From positions 96,001-160,000 of the forward strand of contig CAVRDX010000001.1 in the NCBI GenBank assembly GCA_963719945.1: 64,000 nucleotides of DNA, in the 5' to 3' direction. This document shows, in pieces, positions 43,110 through 64,000 of this stretch (position 1 is its first letter; the number at the start of each line of letters is the position of its first letter). This DNA is from an uncultured Thermoplasmata archaeon (GTDB lineage: Archaea > Thermoplasmatota > Thermoplasmata > UBA10834). The notes under the pieces are model-generated. The model worked only from the letters and a program-made list of their open reading frames with translations, was not told the DNA's origin and did no database searches. The position numbers and the translations under genes are program-made.

Positions 43110-43194
43110 GCGAGGGTAGCCAAGCCCGGTCAAAGGCGACAGACTCAAGATCTGTTCTCGCAGGGGTTCCCCGGTTCAAATCCGGGCCCTCGCA
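43110..43194 (+). tRNA. tRNA-Leu(CAA), intronless, CCA not encoded
   Basis: Acceptor GCGAGGG/CCCTCGC-A, anticodon arm ACAGA-CTCAAGA-TCTGT, long variable arm, T-arm CCCGG-TTCAAAT-CCGGG; TATA-like TTTAATA about 30 nt upstream. Confidence 0.96.
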
Positions 43195-43283
43195 CATTAT
43201 TATTCTAAATGCGTAAATTATATTGTGTCACAGTTCAAATCAGGATCATGTAATGGTCCCGAACTCTGCAGCAGAAGTTCTAA

Positions 43284-43832
43284 GTGATGGCGATTCAATT
43301 CCCTGTTTGGTCGGGTGGCTGCCTGCGCATTGGGCATTTGGATGGTAAGAACAGGATATACGATTCTGATGGAGAGCTGATTCTCAAGGAGAGCGAGAGG
43401 CTTCTTGGCAGATATGTCAAAGTGGAATTAGACATCAAGAAAGGGTGGCGCATGTGGATGGTGGAGAGTGTCTTCACGAGAGAAGCAGGCGCCGTTACTT
43501 GCTACATTACAGACCGGAGAATTGTGTGCATAAGGCGTCCGGATGTCCACAAGGCCGGCGCCTATCTGATGACTCCCTATGGCGCTGCGGAAGGGATCGC
43601 AGATATGTACAAGGCTCGCAAGATTCTCGAAGCAGGCGGATTTGAGTTCTGTGAGTTCATGCCGGATGAGATTCGATTCTACAAGAAGTATCCTGCGGTG
43701 ATGAGTCTCAGGATGATGGATGGTGGAAAGAAATACAGTGCAGACTTCACGATAAAGGGCAAAGCCTTGTCACCTCATTTCCGTCCCGCTCTGATGTCTT
43801 GGGTGGAGAGTAAAGGGATTTCACCAGCGTGA
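43284..43832 (+). CDS. Hypothetical protein (cassette 1)
   Basis: 182-aa ORF with no recognised motif. Confidence 0.6.
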   Translation: MMAIQFPVWSGGCLRIGHLDGKNRIYDSDGELILKESERLLGRYVKVELDIKKGWRMWMVESVFTREAGAVTCYITDRRIVCIRRPDVHKAGAYLMTPYGAAEGIADMYKARKILEAGGFEFCEFMPDEIRFYKKYPAVMSLRMMDGGKKYSADFTIKGKALSPHFRPALMSWVESKGISPA

Positions 43833-43913
43833 TGCTTCAATCTCCTATGGCCTTCTCTCCACAGTTCAAATCAGCATCATGCGTAACCACTCGATTCATA
43901 AGGACTGAGTTCA

Positions 43914-44420
43914 ATGCGCCTGCGATGTCTGACTCGGAGGAGAATGCATGTGTCTTTCGCAGGAGGTGAGACTCTGAGTTTGCTCGCGGAGAGATTTGCT
44001 AGATGGGAAGAAAAGCAAAAGAAATCCAACAGACAGTTGAGATCTGTTCCAGGCCTTAGGAATATCTTCCTTTTCCTGTCATTTGGCTTGATTCCAGCAT
44101 TCTTGCTCTATGCGTGGTTCGATTCCAATGCAAACAATCTGCAATATACATGGTTGTCAGTTGCCGCATTCGTGTGTATGTATTCCTATGGGATGATAGC
44201 TATACTTGACCTTGGCTATCGACGCGACGCTGCTTATCTTGCGTCGGGTTTTCTCATTATTGCATTTGCCAATAAACTCATTGGAAATAATTTCGAGCAT
44301 AGCCTGATTATATGGGGGATGCTGATTGGTTGGTTTAGCGGCGTTGCTTCCATATCATGCATAATGTGGCTTAGGCTTCGAAAAGAATGGAACGAGAAGA
44401 ATCCTGAAAAGAGATGTTGA
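43914..44420 (+). CDS. Hypothetical four-TM membrane protein (cassette 1)
   Basis: Hydrophobic segments; likely start TTG 43980 after GGAGGTGA; stop lies 22 bp before R1. Confidence 0.6.
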   Translation: MRLRCLTRRRMHVSFAGGETLSLLAERFARWEEKQKKSNRQLRSVPGLRNIFLFLSFGLIPAFLLYAWFDSNANNLQYTWLSVAAFVCMYSYGMIAILDLGYRRDAAYLASGFLIIAFANKLIGNNFEHSLIIWGMLIGWFSGVASISCIMWLRLRKEWNEKNPEKRC

Positions 44421-44442
44421 TTCAGCGCTCAGATTCTCTCGA

Positions 44443-44555
44443 TTTTTTACCATCAAAGAATTCGGAGAATCAAGAATCGTGTTTGGCTTTTAGGATTATA
44501 GCTGGCAGTTTTAATTAGGGGTAAATTTGGGGTGATAATCCGGGCCCTCGCACAT
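44443..44555 (+). repeat. att-like repeat R1
   Basis: TTTACCATCAAAGAATTCGG...AGCTGGCAGTTTTAATTAGGGGTAAAT...AATCCGGGCCCTCGCACAT. Confidence 0.95.
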
Positions 44556-44645
44556 ATTTATTATGTGCATATTATTCAAATATGCGGCCGGCTATTGATT
44601 CGTGATGGTCATTGAAATGCATCGTTGCTTCACAGGTACTCTATG

Positions 44646-46118
44646 TTATGAGTTCGCGGGGGTCATCAGAGGATAATCGTCCTGGACTCTCCATGCTATC
44701 AAATATGGGGTGTCGCCGATTCCGTCTTCATCTTCGTCTAAGCCCTCATAATCTGACCAGTAGTTGCCTCTGCCAATCGTCTCATTGCTGAATGATGAGG
44801 TATAGAGATATGCACTACAATCTGCAGAATCCGCGTTGTCAATGAAGTCATTGAGGAATACTTCTAGTCTGTCGGTAGCAGACCCCATGGACGCCATGAT
44901 TCCGTATCCATTACCTCGAAGAGTGTTTCCTGTGACCGTGATATTCCCCCCAAGTGCCATGATACCTGCTCCATTGTCCCGCAGAGTGTTCCCATTGATT
45001 ACGATACGCTCTCCGTCAGTCATAAGGCCAGAGGCGCAATCACAAATCGAATTCTCCATTATTGTCACGTTCGCAGAATCATCCACATTCACCCCATCGA
45101 TGCAGGATGTGATCTGGTTATGTTTGATGGCAACGTTCGTGCATCCGTGTATAAAAACGCGGGCGTTTTCTATCATGCTGGATTCAATCGTGACACGGGT
45201 CGACTCCCTAGCTATGATGCCACCGGTGAACACAGCATTGGAGAGGGCACATTCAACGATTTCACAGTCACGAACCTTCATCAAATAGATGCATGTTGAG
45301 ACACTAGATATCTCCAATCCTGATATGCTCGCATTATTGCAGTTGAGCAGAATCAATTGCCCCACTTGTTCGCTGTAGAGTCTGAATTGAGAATGATTCT
45401 CGAAGAAGTATAGGGGCCTTCCATTTACGGTATTGTCTAGGGGTATATTCAATCCAGAAGAATTAGGCCCTATAGGTATCTCATATTCGTCAAATTCGAG
45501 GCCGCTGCCTTCAAATCTATTCCCAGAAATCGTGACATTCGCAAAATCGGATCCAATGATTCTTATCCCGATCTTCATTGATATCGATGGCAAGTACTCT
45601 ACGCTCCCGTTATCGAAGCTGTTCTCCTCGATGAGTACCGAATCAATGTTGCTGATCGACATGCCCGTGAAGCATGATGTCACCCTGTTTCTTATGATGG
45701 AGCACCTGATGCTATCATGCACGCCAATCCCCTCATAATGACCGATTATCATCGAATTCTCTACCCTTCCATTAGATACATTCTTGAGCAGTATCCCCGC
45801 AATGTTGAGCCCCTCTAATGAAACGTTTCTCACAACGAAGTGCGCCAAAGTTTCCTTTATTAAAATACCTGCTGCTTCAAGGCCGTATTCAATTCCGGAG
45901 GAGTCGATTCTCCACCCTTCAATGATGTACGGGTCTTTCTCAGTTCCCGATCCAGTTGTTACTCCGTTCTCTTCTGTGAATTCTTCATCGCTCGTAATGA
46001 TGATTGGGTCATGCTTGCGCTCGGAGTCAAAATAGCCCGAATAGAGAAGGACCGAGAAAACTGAAACTGAGGAAACTGCGATGACTAGAATCAGGGCGAC
46101 AAGCTTCCTCCGCTCCAT
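44646..46118 (-). CDS. Membrane-anchored NosD/CASH parallel beta-helix protein (cassette 2)
   Basis: N-terminal TM, GSGTEKDPYIIEGW, Asn-ladder repeats, GNYWSDY..D.DGIGDTPY. Confidence 0.85.
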   Translation of the reverse strand: MERRKLVALILVIAVSSVSVFSVLLYSGYFDSERKHDPIIITSDEEFTEENGVTTGSGTEKDPYIIEGWRIDSSGIEYGLEAAGILIKETLAHFVVRNVSLEGLNIAGILLKNVSNGRVENSMIIGHYEGIGVHDSIRCSIIRNRVTSCFTGMSISNIDSVLIEENSFDNGSVEYLPSISMKIGIRIIGSDFANVTISGNRFEGSGLEFDEYEIPIGPNSSGLNIPLDNTVNGRPLYFFENHSQFRLYSEQVGQLILLNCNNASISGLEISSVSTCIYLMKVRDCEIVECALSNAVFTGGIIARESTRVTIESSMIENARVFIHGCTNVAIKHNQITSCIDGVNVDDSANVTIMENSICDCASGLMTDGERIVINGNTLRDNGAGIMALGGNITVTGNTLRGNGYGIMASMGSATDRLEVFLNDFIDNADSADCSAYLYTSSFSNETIGRGNYWSDYEGLDEDEDGIGDTPYLIAWRVQDDYPLMTPANS

Positions 46119-46209
46119 CCTGGGTCCACCATGAGCCTTAAGACAGCACTGTGATATCAATATTATCTCTATCTCAGGGGAATCTTGTCAGCTAGTCACC
46201 CCCGTGTAA

Positions 46210-46323
46210 TTCTTTACCATCAACGAATTCAGGAAACTCATGATTCGCGTTTAGCTTTGAAGTTTATAGCTGGCAGTATTAATTAGGGGTAAATTCCAGG
46301 CTGAAATCCGGGCCCTCGCACAT
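46210..46323 (+). repeat. att-like repeat R2
   Basis: 114-bp copy; 46304-46331 is identical to tRNA end plus flank 43178-43205. Confidence 0.95.
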
Positions 46324-46348
46324 TATTATTCATAATGATGGATGATTG

Positions 46349-47209
46349 TCAAGTTGTTCGATGGCTCGCTGCACCGTGTGCTCGCTTGGGTGATTTGATC
46401 CGATGGGGTCGCACCTTTCTGTCGACCACTATCTGATTGTTCTTTTCGAGATAGTCTAGGCACTCTCTGATAAATGCAGGGGTTTCCCTCAATTCGGTTG
46501 AGAGTCCATCGACCGAGTTCATCCCCTTGTCAATTAGTGTGAGCAACCGCTGGGCACCCATCTTCAATTCCGCTCTTGTCTTCAGTGCTCGTTTCCAGGG
46601 GACTTTCACACCGTATCTCCTTTCCATCTCATCGAGCTTCGTGAGAAGGAACGCCTCCCAGATGCTGCTCTTTCTCAGCCCTTCGGGATCAGTCTGATTA
46701 TCGCACTCCTCTAGGATGATATCGCGGCTCAATCCTTTTCTGAACAACGCGATCATGTCGTCAAGGTCTCTTGATCTCTCAGTTACGCTCTTGAGCAGGA
46801 ATATATCTTCTCGCGAACAAATATACAGAACAAGTTCTCCCCATTCGTCAACCCGCTCTGCTCTTCGAATCATCCCTTCGGAGAGCCTTAGTTTGTTACA
46901 GATCCTTTCGGCGAAGATGTCGGCTCGCACCCCTCCTGAAGCGGACAATATTGTCGCGTCTACAAGTGCGTGACATTCCTGTGGATGCCTGGTATTGACA
47001 TCGAATCCTAGCGATTCGAAAGCTCTCTTGAGTTCCTGCGCTTCAAGCGATGATCGCACTATCAGATCCAAGTCCTTGGTAGCATCCTTCTCGCCTCTGA
47101 GCGCCATTGCTCCACCTCCCACCAAGTAGACTTGGATTCTCATGCTGCAGATATTCCCGACCTTCTCCATTATTGAAAGGACCTCTGATTTGCTGATTTG
47201 GGCCGGCAT
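46349..47209 (-). CDS. Nucleotidyltransferase (DUF6036/AbiEii-like) with C-terminal HTH (cassette 3)
   Basis: VGGGAM...KDATKDLD, LLK...R.RDLDD. Confidence 0.7.
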   Translation of the reverse strand: MPAQISKSEVLSIMEKVGNICSMRIQVYLVGGGAMALRGEKDATKDLDLIVRSSLEAQELKRAFESLGFDVNTRHPQECHALVDATILSASGGVRADIFAERICNKLRLSEGMIRRAERVDEWGELVLYICSREDIFLLKSVTERSRDLDDMIALFRKGLSRDIILEECDNQTDPEGLRKSSIWEAFLLTKLDEMERRYGVKVPWKRALKTRAELKMGAQRLLTLIDKGMNSVDGLSTELRETPAFIRECLDYLEKNNQIVVDRKVRPHRIKSPKRAHGAASHRTT

Positions 47210-47212
47210 CGT

Positions 47213-48133
47213 TCACTTCACCCCATATTGTATTCGTAATTCCTGCATATCCGACCTGCTAGGGAATAGCAGGTTCTCGACGTCTTCACCATCGAGGTAT
47301 TTTATCATCAGTTCGGATAGTTCCCCCACCCCCATCGCATCTCCTTGTCTACGTAGGTATCCTGACCTGTAGCCACTCTTGAACAGGAAGAGCAAGCTGT
47401 ATGCGATGCCTCTTGAGCTGCTTGGATCTATCAGGATGTTGTGGAGGGCGATATCCTCTGGTTTCAGACTCGGTCGCCAGTATGCATAGTGGTAATACTT
47501 CGTATCCGAAATGAACTGAAGTCCGCGTTGCGACATTGCTGTTACCCCAGTGCTGCGAATTCCAGATGTGTCTTTCAACTCTCGGGACGCGAATATAAAC
47601 TGAAGCCCTTCGCACCAGAGTATCCTCCCTGCCGAGGTGATGTCATCGAGGACCGCGGCGCACGCTCCTCTGGAGAAGTCCTGTAGAAATCGTGTTAGTA
47701 TCTTGTCTGATTGAGGAATCGAAATCACATCGCCATCCTGGACAACTGCTGCAAATCCTTTCAATGCCCAGACGATTCTGCGAACAGATTCTGGAGCAAG
47801 TCGCGTTTCAGTTGCGATTCTTCCGAGCGTCTTTTGATTACTTGAGGCCGAGAGCATGACGAGGAGCCTGGAACCAATCAGTGGTTCGATTGCACGAGAA
47901 TTTCCTTCTAGATATGTTGCCAGTGCTTTTGAGTGACCATGCGAGCTTATGAAGATTATATTGATCTTCCCTTCTCTCCGACTTGTCACAAGCTTCTTTG
48001 ACGATAGAGACTGGATTATTCTGTAGATTGAGATATTCGATAGGCCCGTATCTTCTATTAATGCAGCTGCTGATACATGACCATCGCATACTGACTTGAA
48101 TACTCGGAGTTCATTCTTGTTTAGAATATACAT
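47213..48133 (-). CDS. wHTH transcriptional regulator / putative antitoxin (cassette 3)
   Basis: HTH pattern TGLSNISIYRIIQSL..KKLV; likely start MYILNK at 48133; palindrome TCAATATTGA at 48172-81 upstream. Confidence 0.65.
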   Translation of the reverse strand: MYILNKNELRVFKSVCDGHVSAAALIEDTGLSNISIYRIIQSLSSKKLVTSRREGKINIIFISSHGHSKALATYLEGNSRAIEPLIGSRLLVMLSASSNQKTLGRIATETRLAPESVRRIVWALKGFAAVVQDGDVISIPQSDKILTRFLQDFSRGACAAVLDDITSAGRILWCEGLQFIFASRELKDTSGIRSTGVTAMSQRGLQFISDTKYYHYAYWRPSLKPEDIALHNILIDPSSSRGIAYSLLFLFKSGYRSGYLRRQGDAMGVGELSELMIKYLDGEDVENLLFPSRSDMQELRIQYGVK

Positions 48134-48327
48134 TGTGTGCAATAATTGATTGTTCATATATATAGAATTTATCAATATTGACACAAATGTTGCGGTTCAA
48201 TGAATATCAAAGCGTCGTGATATCCCTTCATCTTCTGCCGCTAGAGTACCAGGGTAGCAATCATCAAGGTCCATTCCATTTTGAACTCAGCTTGACAATA
48301 TGACTCTGGAATAATCTGATATCCTAT

Positions 48328-48441
48328 TTCTTTGCCATCAAAAAATTCGGAGAAATCAAGGATCGCATTTGGCTTCGAAGATTCTAGCTGGCAGTTTTAA
48401 TTAGGGGTAAATTCCGGGTCATAATCCGGGCCCTCGCACAT
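48328..48441 (+). repeat. att-like repeat R3
   Basis: 114-bp copy with intact core. Confidence 0.95.
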
Positions 48442-48697
48442 TTTAATTTCAAAGATGGGATTTATGTGCAAATCAACACCCTGCACTTCGGTATTCTCAC
48501 AAGCCCATTGACATGCCACCTTGTTTGAAGGATGTTGACCATCTATCTCTCTGAGGTTGCGTACCTGATCAGAGGTATTGGACAGTGGAGCGAGCAATCT
48601 CGGGCGGTATAGTCCATATGATGTGCCTGCGGCGTTTGACATGTCGCGGAAAATCTTCTATAGCTGCAAGAGCCATTGGGTTGAGGGAGGTTCGTCT

Positions 48698-49333
48698 GTG
48701 AATGCTGAACGCGCTTCGCCAGTTGAGGGACCGGAACGCAATTGGTCGACTCGGAAGAAGATATATGTGATTGTGATTGTCACAGCAGTCATAGCGTCCT
48801 TCTCAATGTGGTCTTTCTACGAATTCTACCTGGAGGAGCAAAGAGTTGCAGGGTTCGACTCTTATGTGAAGATCAGCTACACCGTTTCTATCGCATGCAA
48901 TTCCTCCGATCAATACAGGGTTCTCTGCCCGTTGCCTGTCGATTCAGAGGGGTGTGTTTGGCCCCTAACTCAGGGATATCTATATGTCACTGGAAATTCG
49001 ACCACGAGTATTGCGATGACAGAGTATGGTGAAGCCCTTGAAATCACAGGCAGTGGCGTCACAATAATCACCATGAATATTCGCTCGACGCTCACTGATC
49101 CTTTTGAGAACCTGACTCGCTACTGGCACCTCAGCTTGATGGAATCCAACACGGAATTGGGGTTTCGTGCGAATCTGTATTCTGACCACGAAGATGTGTT
49201 GTTTGGGCTGGTGTTCGACTATGACTTTGTCTACGGCAACTGTGGAGCGAACTTCATCGGTGATGAGTGCATAGGCAGTCTGAACAATGGGTGGAACACA
49301 TTATCTGTTGATCATAGTGGGGGAGTCGCCTGA
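48698..49333 (+). CDS. Membrane-anchored exported hypothetical protein (cassette 4)
   Basis: GTG start after GGAGG; RKK then one TM; beta-rich ectodomain. Confidence 0.6.
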   Translation: MNAERASPVEGPERNWSTRKKIYVIVIVTAVIASFSMWSFYEFYLEEQRVAGFDSYVKISYTVSIACNSSDQYRVLCPLPVDSEGCVWPLTQGYLYVTGNSTTSIAMTEYGEALEITGSGVTIITMNIRSTLTDPFENLTRYWHLSLMESNTELGFRANLYSDHEDVLFGLVFDYDFVYGNCGANFIGDECIGSLNNGWNTLSVDHSGGVA

Positions 49334-49417
49334 TCATTGAATTCTAGGTCTATGTCCATGAACTCCAAGGGAGTTCCGAAGAAGTAATATCTCTCCGCCT
49401 ATGTTCTCGCCTGTCGA

Positions 49418-49531
49418 TTTTCTACCATCAAAGAATTCGGAGAATTCACGGATCGCATTCGGTTTTGAAGATTATAGCTGGCAGTTTTAATTAGGGGTAA
49501 ATTCTGGGCTATAATCCGGGCCCTCGCACAT
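49418..49531 (+). repeat. att-like repeat R4
   Basis: 114-bp copy with intact core. Confidence 0.95.
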
Positions 49532-49753
49532 TATTATTTATGAACCGGGATTCAAAGGTGGCCCAAAACTGCGTATTCGTTACGATTATTTCCAGGACCA
49601 GCTAATCTGGCGTGGTCGATTAGGTGACAATGGCATGATAAATATGCTTACAACAGTCTTCTGATGGTCTGAAATATTTATTTAGTATGATATGTTACGA
49701 TGCCTGCCCAGCAGTGATGGGGGGTTTTGCTTCACTGCTAAAGGAGAGATTCT

Positions 49754-50953
49754 ATGGAGCCTGGAAGTACAGGATTTATGCTTGTGGCAACGAGCCTTGT
49801 CATGCTGATGACGCCTGGCTTGGCTTTTTTCTATGGTGGACTTGTTGGACGAAAGAATGTGCTCACAATAATGATGCAGAGCTTTGTATCGATGGGGGTT
49901 ACGACAATCATCTGGGTCACAGTCGGATTCTCGCTGTGTTTCAGTGGTGATGTAGGCGGGATTATCGGGAATCTCGATAATGCGTTTCTAATGGGGCTTG
50001 ACTTGAACACTCCGTTCACTGCAGATATCCCGGTATTCGTCTTTATCGCATACCAAATGATGTTTGCTGTCATTACGCCTGCTCTGATCACTGGCGCGTT
50101 CGCTAACAGGGTCAAATTCCCAGCTTATCTCATATTCCTGGTGGCATGGTTGCTACTGGTCTACTTCCCAATGGCCCACATGATATGGGGCGGTGGTATC
50201 CTTGCTCAATGGGGCGTTCTCGATTTCGCAGGTGGTATCGCAGTCCACGCCATCGCGGGTATGGCCGCTCTCGCATCCGTTTTCTTTGTCGGCGCGAGAA
50301 AGGACAAGCCTTCTGGTCCTCATAGCATCCCATTGGTTGCGCTCGGCACGGGGCTTCTGTGGTTCGGCTGGTATGGATTCAATGCTGGTAGCGAGCTGAG
50401 AGTGGATGAGGTAACGGTCACTGCATTCCTGAACACCGATATCGCAGCGTCCTTCGCAGCGATATCATGGCTTATCTTGGCTTGGACTCTTGAGAAGAAG
50501 CCGAAATTCCTTGGGCTGCTCACGGGCGCGGTCGCAGGGCTGGCGACGATAACTCCTGCTGCGGGGTTCGTGACTCCGCAGGCTGCGATGGTCATCGGTC
50601 TTTTGGCGGGTGTGATATGCTACTTTGCTGTGGCGCTGAAGAACAAGAGGCATTGGGATGATGCTCTCGATGTATGGGGCGTTCACGGTGTCGGTGGCAT
50701 TGTCGGAGTGGTCTGTCTAGGATTATTCGCAACGCTGGAAGTCAACAGCGCGGGTGCGAACGGTCTGTTCTATGGCGACGCTCGCTTCTTCGCGGTCGAG
50801 ATAGTCGCGGTTGTCATCGCTTCCGTGTATGCCTTCGTATTCACATACATAATGCTGCACGTGATTAACAAGATCACGCCTGTCAGAGTGAGCGATGCGG
50901 ATGAACTGACTGGTCTGGACCAGACGGAGCACGGTGAGGAAGCGTACGTGTGA
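49754..50953 (+). CDS. amt: Ammonium transporter (cassette 5)
   Basis: MTPGLAFFYGG, DFAGG..VH, WFGWYGFNAGS, DDALDV..VHG. Confidence 0.97.
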   Translation: MEPGSTGFMLVATSLVMLMTPGLAFFYGGLVGRKNVLTIMMQSFVSMGVTTIIWVTVGFSLCFSGDVGGIIGNLDNAFLMGLDLNTPFTADIPVFVFIAYQMMFAVITPALITGAFANRVKFPAYLIFLVAWLLLVYFPMAHMIWGGGILAQWGVLDFAGGIAVHAIAGMAALASVFFVGARKDKPSGPHSIPLVALGTGLLWFGWYGFNAGSELRVDEVTVTAFLNTDIAASFAAISWLILAWTLEKKPKFLGLLTGAVAGLATITPAAGFVTPQAAMVIGLLAGVICYFAVALKNKRHWDDALDVWGVHGVGGIVGVVCLGLFATLEVNSAGANGLFYGDARFFAVEIVAVVIASVYAFVFTYIMLHVINKITPVRVSDADELTGLDQTEHGEEAYV

Positions 50954-51105
50954 AACCGTGCGGAACCAGCGTAGTGGGCGAGGCCAAATCTGGTTCAACA
51001 AACCTTTTTCGCTGTTTCAATTGCTCCTCGAGTTTGAATGGGGATCACTAGTTCTATTTTTGATGGCGGTCCAGGAGAAAGCATGAGTTACTACATTGCA
51101 TCGTG

Positions 51106-51765
51106 TCACTTCTCTACCCTTTCTCCGGTCTTCATATAGACCGTCCGTTCAGCGATGTTACATGCATGATCAGCTATCCTCTCAAGATATCTCGCAACGA
51201 ACTGATAGTTCATCCCCATCGTGATGTTCGCAGAGTTCTCCATCATGTATATCAGAACTTCTCGGAATATCTCATCGTACAGAGAGTCGACCCTGTCTTC
51301 AAGGATGAAGACCTCTTCTGTCTTATCCAGGTCTCCCTCGAGGAATGATTCGACGGCTAGGTCGACCATGGATACGGCCATCTCTGATATCCTGGGTATG
51401 CTTACGAGCACTTTGAAATGGCGAAGGTTAGATGCCTTTGCTCTCTCCGTTATCTCTGCGATATCTTTCGCGTACCTCACGATCCTGTCGAAGTCGGTGG
51501 TGATCTTCAGGCTCGTGGTCACATATCTGAGATCACCGGCAACTGGTGCGTGCAAGGCGATTATCTTGACAATCTCCTTCTCAGTCTTGACGAGAATCTC
51601 ATACGCCTTTTCGTCCAACTCTCTGACCCTCTCAACGAGCGAGAGGTCCAGATCCTCAAAGGATTTAGCAGCCAGGGTTATGGCCTCTCGGGCCATGGAT
51701 CCCATCATGTTCATTCTCTCTCCGAGCTCATTCAGCTCATCTTGATATGCTTTCCTCGGCGACAT
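51106..51765 (-). CDS. phoU: Phosphate signalling protein PhoU (cassette 5)
   Basis: PVAGDLR, LERIADHA.NIAE. Confidence 0.92.
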   Translation of the reverse strand: MSPRKAYQDELNELGERMNMMGSMAREAITLAAKSFEDLDLSLVERVRELDEKAYEILVKTEKEIVKIIALHAPVAGDLRYVTTSLKITTDFDRIVRYAKDIAEITERAKASNLRHFKVLVSIPRISEMAVSMVDLAVESFLEGDLDKTEEVFILEDRVDSLYDEIFREVLIYMMENSANITMGMNYQFVARYLERIADHACNIAERTVYMKTGERVEK

Positions 51766-51769
51766 GTTA

Positions 51770-52537: not shown

Positions 52538-52540
52538 GTG

Positions 52541-55564: not shown

Positions 55565-55679
55565 TGTATCACCTGCGGTCTTCTTGCTTTCTCTGTCTCT
55601 TCAATGATCAGCAGGCGACCATTGGCGCTTGAATGTTCAGAGCCTAGATGTCATTGTCAAACTGTGTCAAGCCATCGCA

Positions 55680-55745
55680 TATATAGAAGTATAGTCTCTA
55701 TATAGAAAGCAATAATATCACCTCGTGCCAATGTGTGTATATAGA
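55680..55745. promoter_or_regulatory. Triple TATATAGA motif in the divergent pstS/regulator promoter
   Basis: Copies at 55680-87, 55699-706, 55738-45. Confidence 0.5.
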
Positions 55746-55755
55746 GTCCAATTAA

Positions 55756-56775
55756 TTGGTGTTGATACCTTTGCAGGAATCTAGGCGAATTCAAAAGACC
55801 GGAGGGTCGACCTACACGATCTCCCTCCCGAAGAGATGGGTGGTGGACTCCGGTCTGAAAAAGGGCGATTTTCTATTAATGACGATAGGCAGTGATGGAT
55901 CACTTTCGATAGATTCTGTTTCTCCCCGAGAGACCGAGAAGTTGACGAAAGAGATATCAGTCGATAGCAAGACTGATCCACGAACATTGCTGAGACAGCT
56001 TATCGGTGCATATGTCACGGGTCATGACGTGATTCATGTGAGATCCAATTCCAGAATTCTCCCTGAGATTAGAAGGGCTGTTCAGGATTTCTCAAGAAGG
56101 GTGATTGGCCCTGAGATTATCGAAGAGAGTTCCAACCATATTGTTGTGCAAGATGTCGCTGACCATGCTGACCTGGCCATGCGGAAGGTCGTCCGCCGAA
56201 TGCACCTGATGGTGAAGAACATGTTCGAGGAGGCAGTGAGGGCAGTCGATAGTATGGACGTCACTCTTGCTGATGAGGTCATCGCAAGGGATGATGAGGT
56301 TGATCGACTTCATTGGTTCGTGGAGAAACAGCATGCGACTATCCGTCGTAATGTATCATTTGCGGTCAAGATGAAGATGAGCTGGTTGGAGTCCGACGTA
56401 CTGCTTTCCACGGCGAAATCGTTAGAGAGGATAGCGGACCACGCTGTTCGAGTCGCGCACAGCGTTCGATTGCTCAAGACATCGAAGGTGGATCGCGTGG
56501 TGATATCAGACCTCGAGCGATTGAGTAGTGGTGCGGTCTCAATCCTCGATGACAGTATCGAAGCCTTGTTCAAGAGCGATTCTATCCTTGCCAACAAGTG
56601 TCTGGATCGGTCATCCAGTCTTCAAGACGAGATAAACAAGTTCCTTGAGGGTGCGATGACCCGACGGGGGAAGGTTGCAGTCGGGCTGGCATTTGCAGCT
56701 GAGAGTGTATCACGAGCTTGTGGGTATTCATCGGATATCGCAGAGACTGCTATCAACCTCGCAGAAGGGCAATAA
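55756..56775 (+). CDS. Archaeal phosphate uptake regulator (AbrB-like N-terminus plus PhoU domains)
   Basis: RRIQKTGGSTYTISLPKRW, DDEVDRL, LERIADHA. Confidence 0.9.
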   Translation: MVLIPLQESRRIQKTGGSTYTISLPKRWVVDSGLKKGDFLLMTIGSDGSLSIDSVSPRETEKLTKEISVDSKTDPRTLLRQLIGAYVTGHDVIHVRSNSRILPEIRRAVQDFSRRVIGPEIIEESSNHIVVQDVADHADLAMRKVVRRMHLMVKNMFEEAVRAVDSMDVTLADEVIARDDEVDRLHWFVEKQHATIRRNVSFAVKMKMSWLESDVLLSTAKSLERIADHAVRVAHSVRLLKTSKVDRVVISDLERLSSGAVSILDDSIEALFKSDSILANKCLDRSSSLQDEINKFLEGAMTRRGKVAVGLAFAAESVSRACGYSSDIAETAINLAEGQ

Positions 56776-56917
56776 TCATCAGCAACTTTCCTGTCTTCGC
56801 TTCACATTTTGATCCCTATGTAACGCCAGCTCTCATCTCTGCAGATTCGACCCTGATGACTGAGGCTGTTTCTAATGGCAGTTCTCTACAGCGCAATGAA
56901 TCGGCTTTATCGTTCAT

Positions 56918-57031
56918 TTCTTTACAATCAAAGAAATCGATGAATTCATGATTCGCAATTAGCTTTGAAGATTATAGCTGGCAGTTTTAATTGGGGGTAA
57001 ATTCCGGGCTATAATCCGGGCCCTCGCACAT
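56918..57031 (+). repeat. att-like repeat R5
   Basis: 114-bp copy with intact core. Confidence 0.95.
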
Positions 57032-57231
57032 TTTAATATTTGCGAAAAGATTTACGTTCATGCAGATGCCGGATCGAGAGCAAGCCCGTATCGGCATCAT
57101 TCGGTGCCCCCGAAGTGATTATATTCAGCAATTATATCTCATCACTGCTGAGCGTCGGAGAGGCCTTTCAACATTGGGATTGGAATCATGGATGAGTCGC
57201 TCTTATCGTTCTAAGTAGGCCAACTGGTGAA

Positions 57232-57786
57232 ATGATGGATTTCGTCACGGTGATTCTAATTGCGATTGGGCTATCCATGGATGCTTTTGCAGTTTCAATT
57301 GCCAAAGGAATATCTGTAAATAAGAACAGAAGAAGATCCGCAATCCTATTGGCTTCTCTTTTTGGAGGGTTTCAAGCGCTGATGCCCGTAATCGGTTGGT
57401 TTGCAGGTCTGGGCCTAAGGGACATAATCATGGGAGTCGACCATTGGATTGCATTTGGGCTACTCGGGCTCATTGGCGCAAAGATGATCTACGACTCAAC
57501 GAACGGTGAAGATGGTAAGGAGGAAGATGTTACAATATTCGCGGCACTCGTCCTCGCAGTTGCGACCAGCATCGATGCTTTGATGGTTGGTCTCAGTTTC
57601 GCATTCTTGGAGACACCTATCTTGATCCCCGTCCTGATCATTGGAGCAGTAACCTTTGTGCTATCTTATCTGGGATTCATATTCGGCTCAAGGATGGGAA
57701 GCATCTTCGGCAAGAAGGTAAAGATTCTTGGCGGCCTTATCCTCATATTAATCGGGATACGGATCTTGATAGAGCACTTACTATAG
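57232..57786 (+). CDS. mntP: Manganese efflux pump MntP (cassette 6)
   Basis: LSMDAFAVS, FQALMP, DHWIAF, ATSIDAL. Confidence 0.95.
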   Translation: MMDFVTVILIAIGLSMDAFAVSIAKGISVNKNRRRSAILLASLFGGFQALMPVIGWFAGLGLRDIIMGVDHWIAFGLLGLIGAKMIYDSTNGEDGKEEDVTIFAALVLAVATSIDALMVGLSFAFLETPILIPVLIIGAVTFVLSYLGFIFGSRMGSIFGKKVKILGGLILILIGIRILIEHLL

Positions 57787-57886
57787 ACAACCGGGAGTTC
57801 AAGGGCTACATCCATTGTCATCGATTGATTGATATTGATCGTGGGGGTCGAATCCCATCAACATTGCCCCTTGATGACTGGTTCAT

Positions 57887-58000
57887 TTCTTTACCATCAA
57901 AGAATTCGGAGAATTCAAGAACCACATTTGGCATTGAAGATTATAGCTGACAGTTTTAATTGGGGGTAAATTCCGGGCTATAATCCGGGCCCTCGCACAT
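57887..58000 (+). repeat. att-like repeat R6
   Basis: 114-bp copy with intact core. Confidence 0.95.
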
Positions 58001-58054
58001 TTTAATAATCTGGCGTGAATTAATGTGTGGGTGTTGTCTGCTCCGAATGCTTTA

Positions 58055-59476
58055 CTACCTCTTTCCTCCAATCGATTCTTGCGTCGAGAGGAGGAGTCTC
58101 CACAGAGGAAAAAGGGTGATAGCGACATCGCCCAACTCCATGGTCCCCTCTCTGTCTTTCGTGACAAGGTAGGCTTTGTTGCAGCCATGCACTTCACAGA
58201 ACCTCGCAAGTCCCTTCGCGTCAGATTTGTAGATGCTGGTCTGGTACTTGAGTTCGATTGGAACAGGACCGTGTCTTGATGGCAGCACTATGTCAACCTC
58301 GTTCCCCTGCGGGTCTCTCCAGAAGAAGACCTGTGACGTCCTTGAGAGGTGGTTGTACGCGGCGGTTTCCGCCAACCTTCCGAGTTCCTGACTTCCAGTC
58401 ATATCATCCAGTCCAAGAAGGGCACTGATCAATCCAGTGTCCGTGAGATATGCCCGTTTCGAGGATCGCGCCTGTTTGACCATGCTCTTGGTGTAGTTGT
58501 AGCAGGTCGAGAAGAGCATCGCCCGCTCCAGGATAGAAAGGTACTTCGAGGCCGTTTGTGCCTTCATTCCTATGTCCGGTGCGATGTTGGCGATCTCGAA
58601 CATTTGAGAACTCATGGAGGCGAGTATCTTCAGGAGGTGCATCATGCTCGCAGGGTTCGCGATGCTCTCAGTCTCGGGAAGGTCGTGATACACCACTCTG
58701 TCCAAGACGGATTGCCGGATGTATCTGTGTACCTTTGTGATGGGTTGCATGCCGACCGTCTCCGGATATCCCCCTCTGACCAGGTAGTTGGTCAATGCGT
58801 TCGTGACCTCGTTCTGAATGAGCATGAATGACTCCGGGACCGGAGCGCCCGACCCTATGGGTGGGATTCGTGGCACCTCAATCCCTTTGAACGCCAGATA
58901 TTCTCGGAAAGACAAAGTCGGAATGGTGATATCGAACGCCCTTCCCGCAAGGCTCTCGCCCATGCCCTTCCTCAACCCGAGCGACGACGATCCTGATGCG
59001 AATATCTTCACGTTCGGTTTCGTCTCATAGATGCGCTTGAGGATGGTAGGCCATTCATTAATGAACTGTATCTCGTCGAGGAACAGGAATACCGGGTTCT
59101 TCTTCGAAGGCTTGGTTGGAACTACGTTCTCAAGGAAGTATGATACGACATCCTCGAGGATTGTGTGTTCCCTCGATAGGACTTCGTCAAAGGAGAAGTA
59201 CATAGTGTTCTTGGAATTGACGCCCCTGTCGAGCAAATCCTGCATCGTCTTGGTGATTGCCGTGGTCTTCCCCGACCTCCTCGGCCCCGTGACAAGGACA
59301 ATCTGTCGGTCATCGGCGAAGCTTGTCAACTCCTCAATCGATTCCCTCTGGATGATTTCTTCAACGTGCTCAGCGAGGGATTCACCTCTCCACTGTGGAT
59401 TCGAGATCACTATCTGTCTCACGAGCCTTTCGTTCACGGTGAATCGATATAATTGTGAGTTTATAATGATTTCCAA
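58055..59476 (-). CDS. AAA+ ATPase (AAA_14) with DUF4143 / PD-(D/E)xK C-terminus (cassette 7)
   Basis: NPQW, GPRRSGKT, LDEIQ, SGSS, GGYP, DTGL, EVD...IELK; start uncertain. Confidence 0.88.
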   Translation of the reverse strand: MEIIINSQLYRFTVNERLVRQIVISNPQWRGESLAEHVEEIIQRESIEELTSFADDRQIVLVTGPRRSGKTTAITKTMQDLLDRGVNSKNTMYFSFDEVLSREHTILEDVVSYFLENVVPTKPSKKNPVFLFLDEIQFINEWPTILKRIYETKPNVKIFASGSSSLGLRKGMGESLAGRAFDITIPTLSFREYLAFKGIEVPRIPPIGSGAPVPESFMLIQNEVTNALTNYLVRGGYPETVGMQPITKVHRYIRQSVLDRVVYHDLPETESIANPASMMHLLKILASMSSQMFEIANIAPDIGMKAQTASKYLSILERAMLFSTCYNYTKSMVKQARSSKRAYLTDTGLISALLGLDDMTGSQELGRLAETAAYNHLSRTSQVFFWRDPQGNEVDIVLPSRHGPVPIELKYQTSIYKSDAKGLARFCEVHGCNKAYLVTKDREGTMELGDVAITLFPLWRLLLSTQESIGGKR

Positions 59477-59625
59477 TATATCTAAATGTGTTATTGGGCT
59501 TCAACTGCTCCACAGACAGCACCTGCAACGCTACCAGCTCGACCCTTAGTTCGGCAGCCGATCTCGCTGGCGATGCCCTCGAGATCGCCGAGACAGCGGT
59601 CGACACTGTCGAGAAGCTCGCCTCG

Positions 59626-59739
59626 TTTTTTACCATCAAATAATTCGGAGAATTCACGGATCGCATTCGGTTTTGAAGATTATAGCTGGCAGTTTTAATT
59701 AGGGGTAAATTCCGGGCTATAATCCGGGCCCTCGCACAT
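59626..59739 (+). repeat. att-like repeat R7
   Basis: 114-bp copy with intact core. Confidence 0.95.
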
Positions 59740-59764
59740 TATTATTCATAATGATGGATGATTG

Positions 59765-60625
59765 TCAAGTTGTTCGATGGCTCGCTGCACCGTGTGCTCG
59801 CTTGGGTGATTTGATCCGATGGGGTCGCACCTTTCTGTCGACCACTATCTGATTGTTCTTTTCGAGATAGTCTAGGCACTCTCTGATAAATGCAGGGGTT
59901 TCCCTCAATTCGGTTGAGAGTCCATCGACCGAGTTCATCCCCTTGTCAATTAGTGTGAGCAACCGCTGGGCACCCATCTTCAATTCCGCTCTTGTCTTCA
60001 GTGCTCGTTTCCAGGGGACTTTCACACCGTATCTCCTTTCCATCTCATCGAGCTTCGTGAGAAGGAACGCCTCCCAGATGCTGCTCTTTCTCAGCCCTTC
60101 GGGATCAGTCTGATTATCGCACTCCTCTAGGATGATATCGCGGCTCAATCCTTTTCTGAACAACGCGATCATGTCGTCAAGGTCTCTTGATCTCTCAGTT
60201 ACGCTCTTGAGCAGGAATATATCTTCTCGCGAACAAATATACAGAACAAGTTCTCCCCATTCGTCAACCCGCTCTGCTCTTCGAATCATCCCTTCGGAGA
60301 GCCTTAGTTTGTTACAGATCCTTTCGGCGAAGATGTCGGCTCGCACCCCTCCTGAAGCGGACAATATTGTCGCGTCTACAAGTGCGTGACATTCCTGTGG
60401 ATGCCTGGTATTGACATCGAATCCTAGCGATTCGAAAGCTCTCTTGAGTTCCTGCGCTTCAAGCGATGATCGCACTATCAGATCCAAGTCCTTGGTAGCA
60501 TCCTTCTCGCCTCTGAGAGCCATTGCTCCACCTCCCACCAAGTAGACTTGGATTCTCATGCTACAGATATTCCCGACCTTCTCCATTATTGAAAGGACCT
60601 CTGATTTGCTGATTTGGGCCGGCAT
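59765..60625 (-). CDS. Nucleotidyltransferase, second copy (cassette 8)
   Basis: Protein identical to 46349-47209. Confidence 0.7.
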   Translation of the reverse strand: MPAQISKSEVLSIMEKVGNICSMRIQVYLVGGGAMALRGEKDATKDLDLIVRSSLEAQELKRAFESLGFDVNTRHPQECHALVDATILSASGGVRADIFAERICNKLRLSEGMIRRAERVDEWGELVLYICSREDIFLLKSVTERSRDLDDMIALFRKGLSRDIILEECDNQTDPEGLRKSSIWEAFLLTKLDEMERRYGVKVPWKRALKTRAELKMGAQRLLTLIDKGMNSVDGLSTELRETPAFIRECLDYLEKNNQIVVDRKVRPHRIKSPKRAHGAASHRTT

Positions 60626-60628
60626 CGT

Positions 60629-61549
60629 TCACTTCACCCCATATTGTATTCGTAATTCCTGCATATCCGACCTGCTAGGGAATAGCAGGTTCTCGACGTC
60701 TTCACCATCGAGGTATTTTATCATCAGTTCGGATAGTTCCCCCACCCCCATCGCATCTCCTTGTCTACGTAGGTATCCTGACCTGTAGCCACTCTTGAAC
60801 AGGAAGAGCAAGCTGTATGCGATGCCTCTTGAGCTGCTTGGATCTATCAGGATGTTGTGGAGGGCGATATCCTCTGGTTTCAGACTCGGTCGCCAGTATG
60901 CATAGTGGTAATACTTCGTATCCGAAATGAACTGAAGTCCGCGTTGCGACATTGCTGTTACCCCAGTGCTGCGAATTCCAGATGTGTCTTTCAACTCTCT
61001 GGACGCGAATATAAACTGAAGCCCTTCGCACCAGAGTATCCTCCCTGCCGAGGTGATGTCATCGAGGACCGCGGCGCACGCTCCTCTGGAGAAGTCCTGT
61101 AGAAATCGTGTTAGTATCTTGTCTGATTGAGGAATCGAAATCACATCGCCATCCTGGGCAACTGCTGCAAATCCTTTCAATGCCCAGACGATTCTGCGAA
61201 CAGATTCTGGAGCAAGTCGCGTTTCAGTTGCGATTCTTCCGAGCGTCTTTTGATTACTGGAGGCCGAGAGCATGACGAGGAGCCTGGAACCAATCAGTGG
61301 TTCGATTGCACGAGAATTTCCTTCTAGATATGTTGCCAGTGCTTTTGAGTGACCATGCGAGTTTATGAAGATTATATTGATCTTCCCATCTCTCCGACTT
61401 GTCACAAGCTTCTTTGACGATAGAGACTGGATTATTCTGTAGATTGAGATATTCGATAGGCCCGTATCTTCTATTAATGCAGCTGCTGATACATGACCAT
61501 CGCATACTGACTTGAATACTCGGAGTTCATTCTTGTTTAGAATATACAT
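60629..61549 (-). CDS. wHTH regulator, second copy (cassette 8)
   Basis: Differs from the first copy at three residues (E/D, S/N, V/A). Confidence 0.65.
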   Translation of the reverse strand: MYILNKNELRVFKSVCDGHVSAAALIEDTGLSNISIYRIIQSLSSKKLVTSRRDGKINIIFINSHGHSKALATYLEGNSRAIEPLIGSRLLVMLSASSNQKTLGRIATETRLAPESVRRIVWALKGFAAVAQDGDVISIPQSDKILTRFLQDFSRGACAAVLDDITSAGRILWCEGLQFIFASRELKDTSGIRSTGVTAMSQRGLQFISDTKYYHYAYWRPSLKPEDIALHNILIDPSSSRGIAYSLLFLFKSGYRSGYLRRQGDAMGVGELSELMIKYLDGEDVENLLFPSRSDMQELRIQYGVK

Positions 61550-61743
61550 TGTGTGCAATAATTGATTGTTCATATATATAGAATTTATCAATATTGACAC
61601 AAATGTTGCGGTTCAATGAATATCAAAGCGTCGTGATATCCCTTCATCTTCTGCCGCTAGAGTACCAGGGTAGCAATCATCAAGGTCCATTCCATTTTGA
61701 ACTCAGCTTGACAATATGACCCTGGAATAATCTGATATCCTAT

Positions 61744-61857
61744 TTCTTTGCCATCAAAAAATTCGGAGAAATCAAGGATCGCATTTGGCTTCGAAGATTC
61801 TAGCTGGCAGTTTTAATTAGGGGTAAATTCCGGGTCATAATCCGGGCCCTCACACAT
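61744..61857 (+). repeat. att-like repeat R8 (arm identical to R3; core G>A)
   Basis: Core reads CCCTCACACAT. Confidence 0.93.
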
Positions 61858-61937
61858 TTCAATTCTTGATTCCAAATATCCATTGTGGCACCGTCTATGC
61901 CATCATCTTCTATCCTCCGTTCAAGGGTGCTTTCTCC

Positions 61938-61987
61938 TACCCTTACATATTGCATGCATTAGAAAACTATATGCATATGTAAGGGTA
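61938..61987. promoter_or_regulatory. 13-bp perfect inverted repeat upstream of the Fic gene
   Basis: TACCCTTACATAT-N24-ATATGTAAGGGTA with a TATA-like AACTATAT inside. Confidence 0.6.
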
Positions 61988-61996
61988 TGAGATGTC

Positions 61997-62893
61997 ATGG
62001 TCGTCATTAGGAAGAAGACGGTCGATGGTCGGGAGTACTTTTATCTCCAGCACACTATCAGAACTCCCTCGGGCGTTCAAACCCGTGAGAAGTATCTTGG
62101 AGCGAAATTGCCTCACGATGTCGAGGCTTCAAAGAGGGACTTCCTTACAGAGATTTACAGAGAGCGATGGTATCCACTTCTGGATCAGGTTCGTTCGAAC
62201 TACCAGAAGGAGAAGCGTGCACTACCACCTAGCACCCTCCAGAAGCGTGATCGCCAATTCTCAATCAAGTTCACATATGATACGAATCGCATCGAAGGTT
62301 CGAGACTCACTTATCGTGAAACGGCTGATTTGCTCGAGAGAGGACTGAGTCCAAGCCAGAAACCGATTGAGGACATCAAGGAAGCCGAGGCCCACGACAG
62401 AGTCTTCCGGGAAGCGCTGCGATACAAGAAAGACCTGTCACTGCAGACGATCTTGATGTGGCACAAGAAGCTGTTCGAGGAGACGAAGCCAGATATAGCA
62501 GGGAGAGTCAGGACTTACCAGGTGGCAATCTCTGGGAGCCGATTCATGCCTCCTAGCCCCGTCGAAATCCAACCATTGCTCAGAGAATTCTTCCGATGGT
62601 ATAATCGGAACAAACCTTCCATGCACCCAGCCGAGTTGGCTGCTGGAGTTCATCTGAGATTCGTGACAATACATCCGTTTGCCGATGGAAACGGCAGGAT
62701 GAGCCGTCTCCTAATGAACTTCGTATTGCATCGAAACGGATATCCTCCTCTGAATATTCCGTATGAGGGTCGTCGGGGCTACTACAATGCGCTTGAGCGG
62801 TCCCAGGTGAAGGAGAGCGACAGCACCTTCATTCAGTGGTTCTTCAAGAGGTATCTCAAGGAATACTCAACATACACCATGACCACGAAGTGA
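61997..62893 (+). CDS. Fic family protein (cassette 9)
   Basis: HPFADGNGRMSR catalytic motif; TNRIEG inhibitory-type motif. Confidence 0.93.
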   Translation: MVVIRKKTVDGREYFYLQHTIRTPSGVQTREKYLGAKLPHDVEASKRDFLTEIYRERWYPLLDQVRSNYQKEKRALPPSTLQKRDRQFSIKFTYDTNRIEGSRLTYRETADLLERGLSPSQKPIEDIKEAEAHDRVFREALRYKKDLSLQTILMWHKKLFEETKPDIAGRVRTYQVAISGSRFMPPSPVEIQPLLREFFRWYNRNKPSMHPAELAAGVHLRFVTIHPFADGNGRMSRLLMNFVLHRNGYPPLNIPYEGRRGYYNALERSQVKESDSTFIQWFFKRYLKEYSTYTMTTK

Positions 62894-62907
62894 TTTCTTC
62901 AGGACCG

Positions 62908-62997
62908 TTTCTTACCATCAAAAGAATTCAAGAATCACATTTAGCTTTGAAGAATATAGTTGGCAGTTTCAATTAGGGGTAAATTCCAGGCCAATCC
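62908..62997 (+). repeat. Degenerate terminal repeat R9
   Basis: Arm recognisable with an internal deletion; ends AAATTCCAGGCCAATCC and lacks GGGCCCTCGCA. Confidence 0.88.
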
Positions 62998-63074
62998 CTG
63001 GAACGTCAAGGGCCTTCAATTCGTCTCAGTGTGAGATGTGAAGTCATTCTAGATGGCGATGCTCTTCGGTCTGT

Positions 63075-63971: not shown

Positions 63972-64000
63972 GTATTGTTTATGAAGGCATATATGATATA

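Follow-up and report, generated by a model that had tools for sequence, protein, structure and literature searches.

How does one short repeat come to stand nine times, always in the same orientation, behind a single archaeal tRNA gene and to bracket genes that are unrelated to each other? This question is raised by a 64,000-nt stretch of DNA (the window, positions 96,001 to 160,000 of contig CAVRDX010000001.1, assembly GCA_963719945.1) from an uncultured Thermoplasmata archaeon, whose metagenome-assembled genome (MAG; G000, hereafter the own genome) comprises 1.78 Mb in four contigs (C1-C4) and is 87% complete. The locus was compared with those of species-level genomes of relatives (G0xx, with Gxxx:Cn for a contig), with extracted loci (Lxxx) and with metagenome runs (Xn). 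We conclude that small, non-autonomous, site-specific integrative cassettes have probably accumulated here in tandem, next to the 3′ end of tRNA-Leu(CAA), with an Xer-like integrase as the likeliest enzyme.

ARAGORN and Rfam agree on a single intact tRNA-Leu(CAA) at the locus, and the final 17 nt of this gene together with 2 nt of flank make up a 19-nt core, AATCCGGGCCCTCGCACAT (43179-43197), which we propose to act as the attachment site attB. Besides its copy in the tRNA at 43179, the exact 19-mer occurs at 44537, 46305, 48423, 49513, 57013, 57982 and 59721, and a copy with one mismatch lies at 61839; all nine copies, i.e. that of the tRNA and eight downstream, are on the + strand, against a chance expectation of 0. 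An arm of ~95 nt is found upstream of each of the eight downstream cores, and a ninth arm (R9, about 62908-63008) has lost its core. The repeats thus formed, R1-R9, measure 114 nt in R2-R8 and 113 nt in R1, with R9 truncated, and their start-to-start spacings are 1768, 2118, 1090, 7500, 969, 1739, 2118 and 1156 nt. Both the nine co-oriented repeats and the seven copies of 114 nt that the initial annotation had described are therefore present, the core being kept in eight repeats, seven of them exact. The tRNA and the units between the repeats (K1-K10), with their open reading frames (ORFs), are as follows.

43110..43195, + strand: intact tRNA-Leu(CAA) (ARAGORN; Rfam RF00005, 56.8 bits).
43198..44555: K1, 1358 nt, two ORFs without a family, 43284-43832 (+) and 43914-44420 (+); closed by R1 (44442-44555).
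44556..46323: K2, 1768 nt, NosD/beta-helix protein of 504 aa, 44646-46160 (-), PF05048, 1.4e-26; closed by R2 (46210-46323).
46324..48441: K3, 2118 nt, DUF6036 nucleotidyltransferase, 46349-47209 (-), and helix-turn-helix (HTH)/HVO_2833_C protein, 47213-48184 (-); closed by R3 (48328-48441).
48442..49531: K4, 1090 nt, a 251-aa ORF without a family, 48578-49333 (+); closed by R4 (49418-49531).
49532..57031: K5, 7500 nt, with an ammonium transporter gene (amt), 49754-50953 (+), a full pstSCAB-phoU operon annotated as phoU, pstB, pstA/pstC and pstS, 51106-55564 (-), and a PhoU/MazE-like regulator, 55756-56775 (+), all by Pfam; closed by R5 (56918-57031).
57032..58000: K6, 969 nt, MntP manganese efflux pump, 57232-57786 (+), PF02659, 5e-49; closed by R6 (57887-58000).
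58001..59739: K7, 1739 nt, AAA_14/DUF4143 ATPase, 58055-59476 (-), classed by PADLOC as a candidate for defence (PDC-S01); closed by R7 (59626-59739).
59740..61857: K8, 2118 nt, duplicate of K3 with ORFs at 59765-60625 (-) and 60629-61600 (-); closed by R8 (61744-61857), whose core has one substitution.
61858..63013: K9, about 1156 nt, Fic/DOC protein, 61997-62893 (+), PDC-S04/SoFic-like; closed by R9, arm only.
63014..64000: K10, start only, second Fic protein, 63075-63971 (-); continues past the window end.

The nine complete cassettes in the window, of 1.0-7.5 kb, hold whole ORFs on either strand. Three window ORFs had no match in Pfam, NCBIfam or PADLOC, and no cassette ORF in the window fell into a recombinase, replication or transfer family by these searches, which agrees with the initial description of whole, unrelated genes in either orientation without such functions. 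The G+C of the array is 0.43-0.53 versus 0.51-0.57 in the upstream chromosome. Searching of the own genome by BLAST and with an nhmmer profile returned the repeat at tRNA-Leu(CAA) and nowhere else in the 1.78 Mb; being confined to one locus, it is not a dispersed miniature inverted-repeat transposable element. No RNA family was detected in the repeats by Rfam.

Five lines of evidence, all drawn from sequence comparison, suggest that the units are discrete and mobile. K3 and K8 share 99.6% identity (8 differences in about 2130 positions), and this identity sets in exactly with the preceding core and ends exactly with the closing core, the sequences outside being unrelated and the left-hand arms of the duplicate, which belong to K2 and K7, being different. 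The 95-nt arms show a mean pairwise identity of only 85%, yet seven of the eight downstream cores equal the tRNA core; at the divergence of the arms an identical 19-mer is expected in about 4% of copies, and this homogeneity would fit a resetting of the cores by recombination.

Cassette content and order at tRNA-Leu(CAA) differ among G000, G037, G042, G039 and G040. K7 is seventh in the window, first after the tRNA in G039 and present twice in G037; the unit with the minus-strand Fic gene (K10) is tenth here, second after the tRNA in G040 and placed between arms in G042; and K7, K3 and the pst unit are adjacent in G037:C2, where the K3 copy, 98% identical, sits between arms. In the metagenome loci, the K1 left end is preceded by another arm instead of the tRNA (L179), and K6 recurs as the same cassette of 969 nt (L144). 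K5 proved to be composite, in that its amt part (49532 to about 51057) is missing in G037 and the metagenome versions, the pst-only form in G037:C2 and in metagenome contigs starting about 45 nt before window position 51058. Between amt and pst in K5, no arm, core or other att remnant was found, and the whole K5 recurs in G042 with 94.5% identity. Logan contigs from four sediment and groundwater runs connect the tRNA core with K9, with the pst unit at 51078 or with the integrase module described below; they connect the R1 core with the pst unit as well, the joint in K5 falling at 51077/51078.

A secondary insertion site downstream of a TATA-binding protein (TBP) gene provides an occupied and an empty version. 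In G036:C121, a single core-like site lies between two flanks; in G037:C9, these flanks enclose, from left to right, a perfect core, a 1164-nt cassette and an arm whose core is slightly degenerate. The inserted cassette encodes Fic only and is 94% identical to K9, the core has been duplicated, and the insertion shares only the core with its target. A degenerate empty version of this site is also found in the own genome (C1:420535-420567), where it takes the form of a TBP paralogue (G000:C1:419647-420567) followed by a degenerate arm and core. Other TBP paralogues adjoin arms of the family in distal arrays (G037:C4:143573-144170 and G036:C17:23837-24480) and look cargo-like.

Alignment of 133 unique junctions revealed that conservation begins about -100 and stops about +35 from the core and is flat outside, and such sharp limits are hard to obtain by random deletion of larger elements. 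Thus, the initial proposal of minimal non-autonomous cassettes, each a cargo plus a shared attachment site (attP), finds support in the core-to-core duplicate, the order differences, the occupied/empty pair and the homogenised cores.

The arrays are not peculiar to one assembly. The repeat was detected in 27 of 46 species-level genomes of the family, in all four genera and mostly clustered, the shortest of these matches covering the tRNA-like 3′ part only, and wherever the tRNA contig of a genus member is available, tRNA-Leu(CAA) has an array behind it. An exact-pattern scan yielded 118 metagenome stretches with the repeat, of which 80 loci (570 kb) were analysed, 11 of them with the tRNA at the array head. 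Genome and metagenome loci together gave 93 complete cassettes of 54 sequence types. The shortest has 534 nt and the longest 30 kb, the median being about 2.1 kb, and each contains 1-6 ORFs, which may lie on either strand. Their cargo comprises beta-helix surface proteins, GNAT acetyltransferases, winged-helix regulators, ammonium and ABC transporters, AAA_14/DUF4143 ATPases, IS110 transposases and assorted enzymes. The arm pattern had no match in IMG/VR. The own genome also has a second mini-array (G000:C4:316095-318650), in which the 15 nt that end tRNA-Arg(TCG) are found again at 316972 and at 318634. Each of these two copies has in front of it a ~75-nt conserved arm unrelated to the tRNA-Leu arm, and two units of about 0.8 and 1.7 kb are thereby bounded.

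The junctions have a defined architecture. In addition to arm and core, ~35 nt to the right of each core are conserved and make up the left end of the following cassette, which reads T[TA]T[AT]AT, about 11 nt and GATT[TA]ATGT, in its motif form TTTAAT, about 11 nt and GATTAATGTTCAAAC. A palindrome, TACCGGTA (one mismatch allowed), recurs at three places in the arms, about -90, about -25 and, between them, about -50 (-70 where the arm is short), and is 20 times as frequent as in shuffled sequence. A conserved fold is lacking: the alifold consensus of 45 diverse junctions had -1.6 kcal/mol with a single 3-bp stem, single-sequence folds gave a mean z of about -1 on both strands, and a 9-bp inverted repeat of some local copies is not kept in other arm classes. 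The absence of attC palindromes noted in the initial annotation was thus substantiated, no attC-like hairpin being found in these junctions.

Which enzyme could act on such sites? A listing of all tyrosine recombinases (PF00589) returned two in the own genome, XerA (C1:430395) and a 365-aa integrase on C2, and none in the cassettes. The C2 integrase was rejected as the enzyme of the array, being one of a multi-copy family and followed by a copy of the tRNA-Leu(CAG) 3′ end (together G000:C2:21651-22830), which points to another target. The intact tRNA-Leu(CAG) lies at C1:900492-900577, 5.6 kb from the C1 end, and an element integrated at it probably links contigs C1 and C2.

A better candidate is found in sister species. 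The first unit after tRNA-Leu(CAA) in G042, of 2.07 kb, carries an integrase truncated after residue ~223, and a search with this protein returned homologues, either full-length or cut by a contig end, directly 3′ of tRNA-Leu(CAA) in G037, G019, G036 and G017; further homologues are present in G012 and G047. The G037 integrase (L060:1531-2508; its partner ORF, described below, at L060:948-1595) has 325 aa, and its G019 homologue is 74% identical. The protein combines a SAM-like N domain with a catalytic domain (PF00589, 86 bits). Its best matches in NCBIfam and the PDB are archaeal XerA (5hxy) and XerC/D, and it scores 53.9 bits on the integron-integrase model TIGR02249 versus a cut-off of 265. 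An SSV-type (Sulfolobus spindle-shaped virus) split integrase is ruled out by its gene being intact in the integrated state. Upstream of the integrase there is always a 215-aa partner ORF, which starts 5 nt after the core and displays a GRP AT-hook-like motif, a beta-alpha-alpha start like that of ribbon-helix-helix (RHH) proteins, a long helix or coiled coil and a probable winged helix. The RHH and winged-helix assignments are tentative, as the AlphaFold2 model has a mean pLDDT of 74 and the Foldseek winged-helix matches are weak (E 0.06-0.25). Neither the Xer-like integrase nor the partner ORF is found in the own genome, and no tyrosine recombinase of the three types tested was found in the 570 kb of metagenome arrays.

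G037 and G019 share this two-gene module alone, the following 30-41 kb being unrelated and looking like cargo. In G037, the integrase-headed 30-kb unit (C8:71577-99769; L079, L080, L047) ends in a recognisable arm and core and encodes a second threonyl-tRNA synthetase, several radical SAM enzymes, a major facilitator superfamily (MFS) transporter, a succinyl-CoA-synthetase-like ATP-grasp protein and an rve/Mu-type insertion sequence (IS), and no plasmid or virus backbone was recognised among ten large ORFs scanned. As for viral relatives, IMG/VR holds one 48%-identical integrase on a 4.8-kb viral contig, preceded by a distant homologue of the partner, and the integrase identity to GenBank phages does not exceed 28%. 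A paralogous partner-integrase module follows a tRNA-Ser-like gene with an apparent intron in G012 (C36; L084:11750-11890) and G017 (C5; L085:3300-3440), a gene that ARAGORN did not report; not all lineages of the integrase family thus have the same tRNA as their target.

A link between this module and the cassettes is suggested by their motifs. In the window's genus (g1), the arm motif occurs as the variants ACCATCAAA/TTTGATGGT, while g3 has TACCGGTA. The distal motif copy of the window's genus is TTTACCATCAAAG in nine of nine arms, and the integrase module of this genus opens with the exact inverse of that copy, TTTGATGGTAAAG; G019 has TACCGGTA in its arms and GTTACCGGTAAC at the start of its integrase module. 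Within a lineage, arms and integrase module thus carry corresponding motif variants, the variant of the module lying to the right of the core. That the module may serve the cassette sites is argued chiefly from this co-variation.

Based on these observations, a cassette would consist of a left end of ~35 nt, a cargo of 1-6 genes on either strand, a right arm of ~95 nt and the 19-nt core, and if the cassette were circular, its two ends would meet to make a single attP of about 150 bp. Recombination between the attP core and the core of the tRNA, or one inside the array, would be the work of a tyrosine recombinase encoded elsewhere, by which the tRNA would be regenerated and an arm-core junction left behind each cassette. 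The likeliest enzyme would be the Xer-like integrase located 3′ of the tRNA in sister species, and its 215-aa partner may bind the palindromic arm motif, i.e. TACCGGTA or, in the window's genus, ACCATCAAA/TTTGATGGT. The cassettes are thus probably mobilised in trans. We infer from the comparisons above that there is a circular intermediate, which enzyme acts, what the partner does and that insertion occurs preferentially at the tRNA. The trans-acting recombinase postulated in the initial annotation has gained support in so far as a candidate exists beside the same tRNA in relatives and is absent here. As the own genome is devoid of the integrase, its array would at present be an orphan, like an integron cassette cluster without an integrase.

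In this scheme distal junctions would shed their cores and become fixed, and the far end of the array shows what this could look like. The array extends for another 1.7 kb or so beyond the window end and stops at about window coordinate 65700; at least three further units follow behind degenerate arms, and the conserved chromosomal flank shared with sister genomes resumes near window coordinate 65711. The stretch between the window end and 65711 matches units that lie between arms in other genomes. In the distal junctions the arm is kept and the core is lost at varied points, which fits entry near the tRNA and fossilisation further out; as cassette order differs between species, array position is nevertheless not a simple clock. 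One locked junction, in which the arm is cut inside the core (AATCC then ATGTTGTCCCC), precedes one common downstream unit; it is exact in G036 (C65:7960-8059) and two metagenome runs, and diverged in G037 (C4:143337-143441). In the two runs, X1 and X5, this AATCC-ATGTTGTCCCC junction is seen at loose contig ends at window position 46309.

Several observations weigh against an array built by this integrase. Only about 7 of 49 genomes in the order have the integrase, versus arrays in at least 27 of 46 of the family, and the left-end motif of the cassettes (GATTAATGTTCAAAC type) differs from the left end of the integrase module, so that the cassettes may answer to another recombinase. No circle, excision junction or tandem self-junction was found in the Logan contigs of the four runs or in the 80 metagenome loci, the latter showing no terminal repeat and no cassette following itself. 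A lone joint that goes back (49539 to 48469, runs X2 and X5) was considered as a circle and rejected, since its 30 letters equal the arrangement in G036:C65 and it therefore represents another neighbour order. The own genome is an 87%-complete MAG, in which the cassette order, and notably the 2.1-kb duplicate, rests on assembly. Many joints at arms and cores are seen in the Logan contigs; these contigs break at arms, and therefore the cassette order of the own genome is not confirmable from them. The run that best matches the source contains 35% of the sampled words. The 114-nt repeats could support homologous recombination, which would explain some of the reshuffling. Finally, the scheme gives no account of how precise att ends come to be on new cassettes.

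Some of these points would suit another enzyme, namely that the cassettes are mobile through the XerA of the host or through an integrase from a virus or plasmid that was not assembled, and that the RHH-integrase elements merely share the target. The unlike left ends and the rarity of the integrase speak for it, as does the occurrence of XerA in every genome. Host Xer enzymes are able to build such arrays from IMEX (integrative mobile elements exploiting Xer), reportedly as described by Das et al. in 2013 (cited in PMC6563490). We nevertheless consider this unlikely, because the arm motifs co-vary with that of the integrase module between g1 and g3, the integrase-headed unit of G037 ends in an arm of the family, and the core is a tRNA end instead of a dif-like site. 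Moreover, G037, with the secondary-site insertion and the duplicated K7, has an intact integrase, and the sole other integrase of the own genome adjoins the tRNA-Leu(CAG) fragment and hence another target.

Alternatively, the units could be fossil scars, i.e. remnants of autonomous integrase-carrying elements after deletion, which would make the array a graveyard. Decay by deletion does occur, as the truncated integrase in the 2.07-kb unit of G042 demonstrates, distal arms lose their cores at varied points, and tycheposon islands contain such remnants (bioRxiv 10.1101/2020.12.28.424599). Random loss, however, would have to produce the same limits at about -100 and +35 around unrelated cargo in 133 junctions, the core-to-core duplicate K3/K8, and identical integrase-less units with the same ends in several species; no integrase fragments were found in the 570 kb of arrays, and a Fic-only cassette was inserted with core duplication at a second site. 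We therefore judge a graveyard origin to be improbable. Lastly, shuffling, duplication and deletion of units by homologous recombination (unequal crossing-over), or a strain chimera in the MAG, is very improbable as the main source of the pattern. In favour of it, RecA/RadA-type exchange is feasible between 114-nt repeats of 80-97% identity, the breaks of short-read contigs all fall at arms and a 99.6% duplicate in a MAG is a typical assembly hazard. Against it, arrays exist in independent assemblies of every genus member with that contig and in 118 metagenome stretches, the K7-K3 adjacency is repeated in G037:C2, nothing but the core is shared between the secondary-site insertion and its target, and the duplicate breaks at the cores though its left-hand arms differ.

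With non-autonomous site-specific cassettes as the favoured explanation, the array can be compared with known systems. It resembles integrons, including sedentary chromosomal integrons and clusters of attC sites lacking an integrase (CALINs), in the ordered, co-oriented array of small recombinase-less cassettes, mostly of 1-2 genes, at one site, in contents that vary between close relatives, in a large shared pool (here 54 types in 93 cassettes), in cargo rich in toxin- or defence-like and adaptive genes, in arrays that often lack an integrase, and in the simple Xer-like nature of that enzyme. It differs in that integrons have attC hairpins and an attI target, whereas here a ~150-bp double-strand attP with predicted protein-binding motifs and a tRNA 3′ end are found. 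Integron cassettes are mostly promoterless single ORFs of one orientation served by the promoter Pc, whereas genes here lie on both strands with up to six ORFs and therefore need promoters of their own. The integrase here is no fixed part of the platform and falls below the TIGR02249 cut-off, and an IntI-type gene beside the array is absent in the own genome. With neither attC nor IntI, the likeness is one of functional logic only, so that of the initial notion of a tRNA-based integron analogue the function stands and the membership does not.

Other systems for comparison are the cis-mobilizable elements (CIMEs) of streptococci that accrete with ICESt1 and ICESt3, and integrase-less att-flanked islands in general, which are likewise flanked by att sites of a relative that carries an integrase, devoid of recombination and transfer genes and in tandem with an autonomous element, and for which mobilisation by a relative's integrase has been proposed. 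Correspondingly, the att sites here are related to an integrase-carrying element at the same tRNA, and the cargo lacks recombinase and transfer genes. Unlike CIMEs, however, arrays here contain at least 12 much smaller units, sharply delimited by conserved attP at both ends, in an archaeal host, with no conjugation machinery in sight and the autonomous partner usually absent. The tycheposons of Prochlorococcus also integrate at tRNAs, push older elements outward, leave partial tRNA copies between units and carry nutrient uptake (here amt, pstSCAB-phoU and MntP) and defence cargo. Tycheposons have their own integrase, tyrosine or large serine, and usually a replication module (bioRxiv 10.1101/2020.12.28.424599), whereas the units here have neither, and a long conserved arm extends beyond the tRNA-derived core. 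IMEX (CTX, TLC, VGJ and the gonococcal genomic island GGI, integrated at dif by host XerCD) similarly form recombinase-less tandem arrays at one site through an Xer-type enzyme encoded elsewhere; here the site is a tRNA end without a dif-like dyad, and the candidate is a mobile-element integrase with an accessory protein instead of XerA.

Islander-type tRNA islands share the direct repeat of the tRNA 3′ end at each boundary and the regenerated tRNA (here the core nine times in one orientation), but have one integrase per island, whereas it is confined here to the head unit in G037, G019, G042, G036 and G017. Archaeal tyrosine recombinases are known to target tRNA 3′ ends, tandem integration at tRNA genes is known from archaea and bacteria, and loss of the integrase gene after integration has been documented as well (PMC8371274, PMC6563490). 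Tandem archaeal viruses and plasmids at tRNAs are, by contrast, full-size and few per site, and the present integrase does not belong to the SSV 'suicidal' type; neither PMC8371274 nor PMC6563490 describes arrays in which a dozen single-gene units share an attP. In the open-access literature, no description of such archaeal cassette arrays was found. The initial statement that this is not a described system was nonetheless too strong, because tandem accretion and integrase-less att-flanked elements have bacterial precedents in CIMEs, IMEX and tycheposon islands. What is different here is the dozen or more very small units per site with a sharply bounded ~150-bp attP on unrelated cargo, the large shared pool, the usually absent helper and the archaeal host.

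A wider reading, which we offer tentatively and with the balance somewhat against it, is a dedicated archaeal gene-capture system as opposed to a by-product of decaying elements, in which a pool of double-strand-attP cassettes would be exchanged between species and stored at tRNAs with the help of a sporadic integrase and its partner. It would include a step that gives arbitrary genes precise att ends, as well as sister systems with other arms at other tRNAs, of which the second array of the own genome, at tRNA-Arg(TCG), would be one. If true, this would be an archaeal counterpart of the integron that evolved independently.

How small-genome uncultured archaea without known conjugation or competence take up accessory genes is poorly understood. 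The locus offers a concrete route, namely single-gene to operon-size modules with a portable recombination site and an expandable array behind a tRNA, and their cargo ranges from ammonium and phosphate uptake and manganese efflux to Fic and ATPase defence candidates and surface proteins, with cassettes common to several species and to sediment and groundwater metagenomes. The parts are testable, i.e. the 325-aa integrase, the 215-aa partner, the ~150-bp attP with its palindromic motif and the 19-bp attB, and if the proposed mechanism is true, they would make up a compact site-specific integration toolkit for archaea. The array would then be a second, independent solution to the cassette-array problem that integrons have solved in bacteria.

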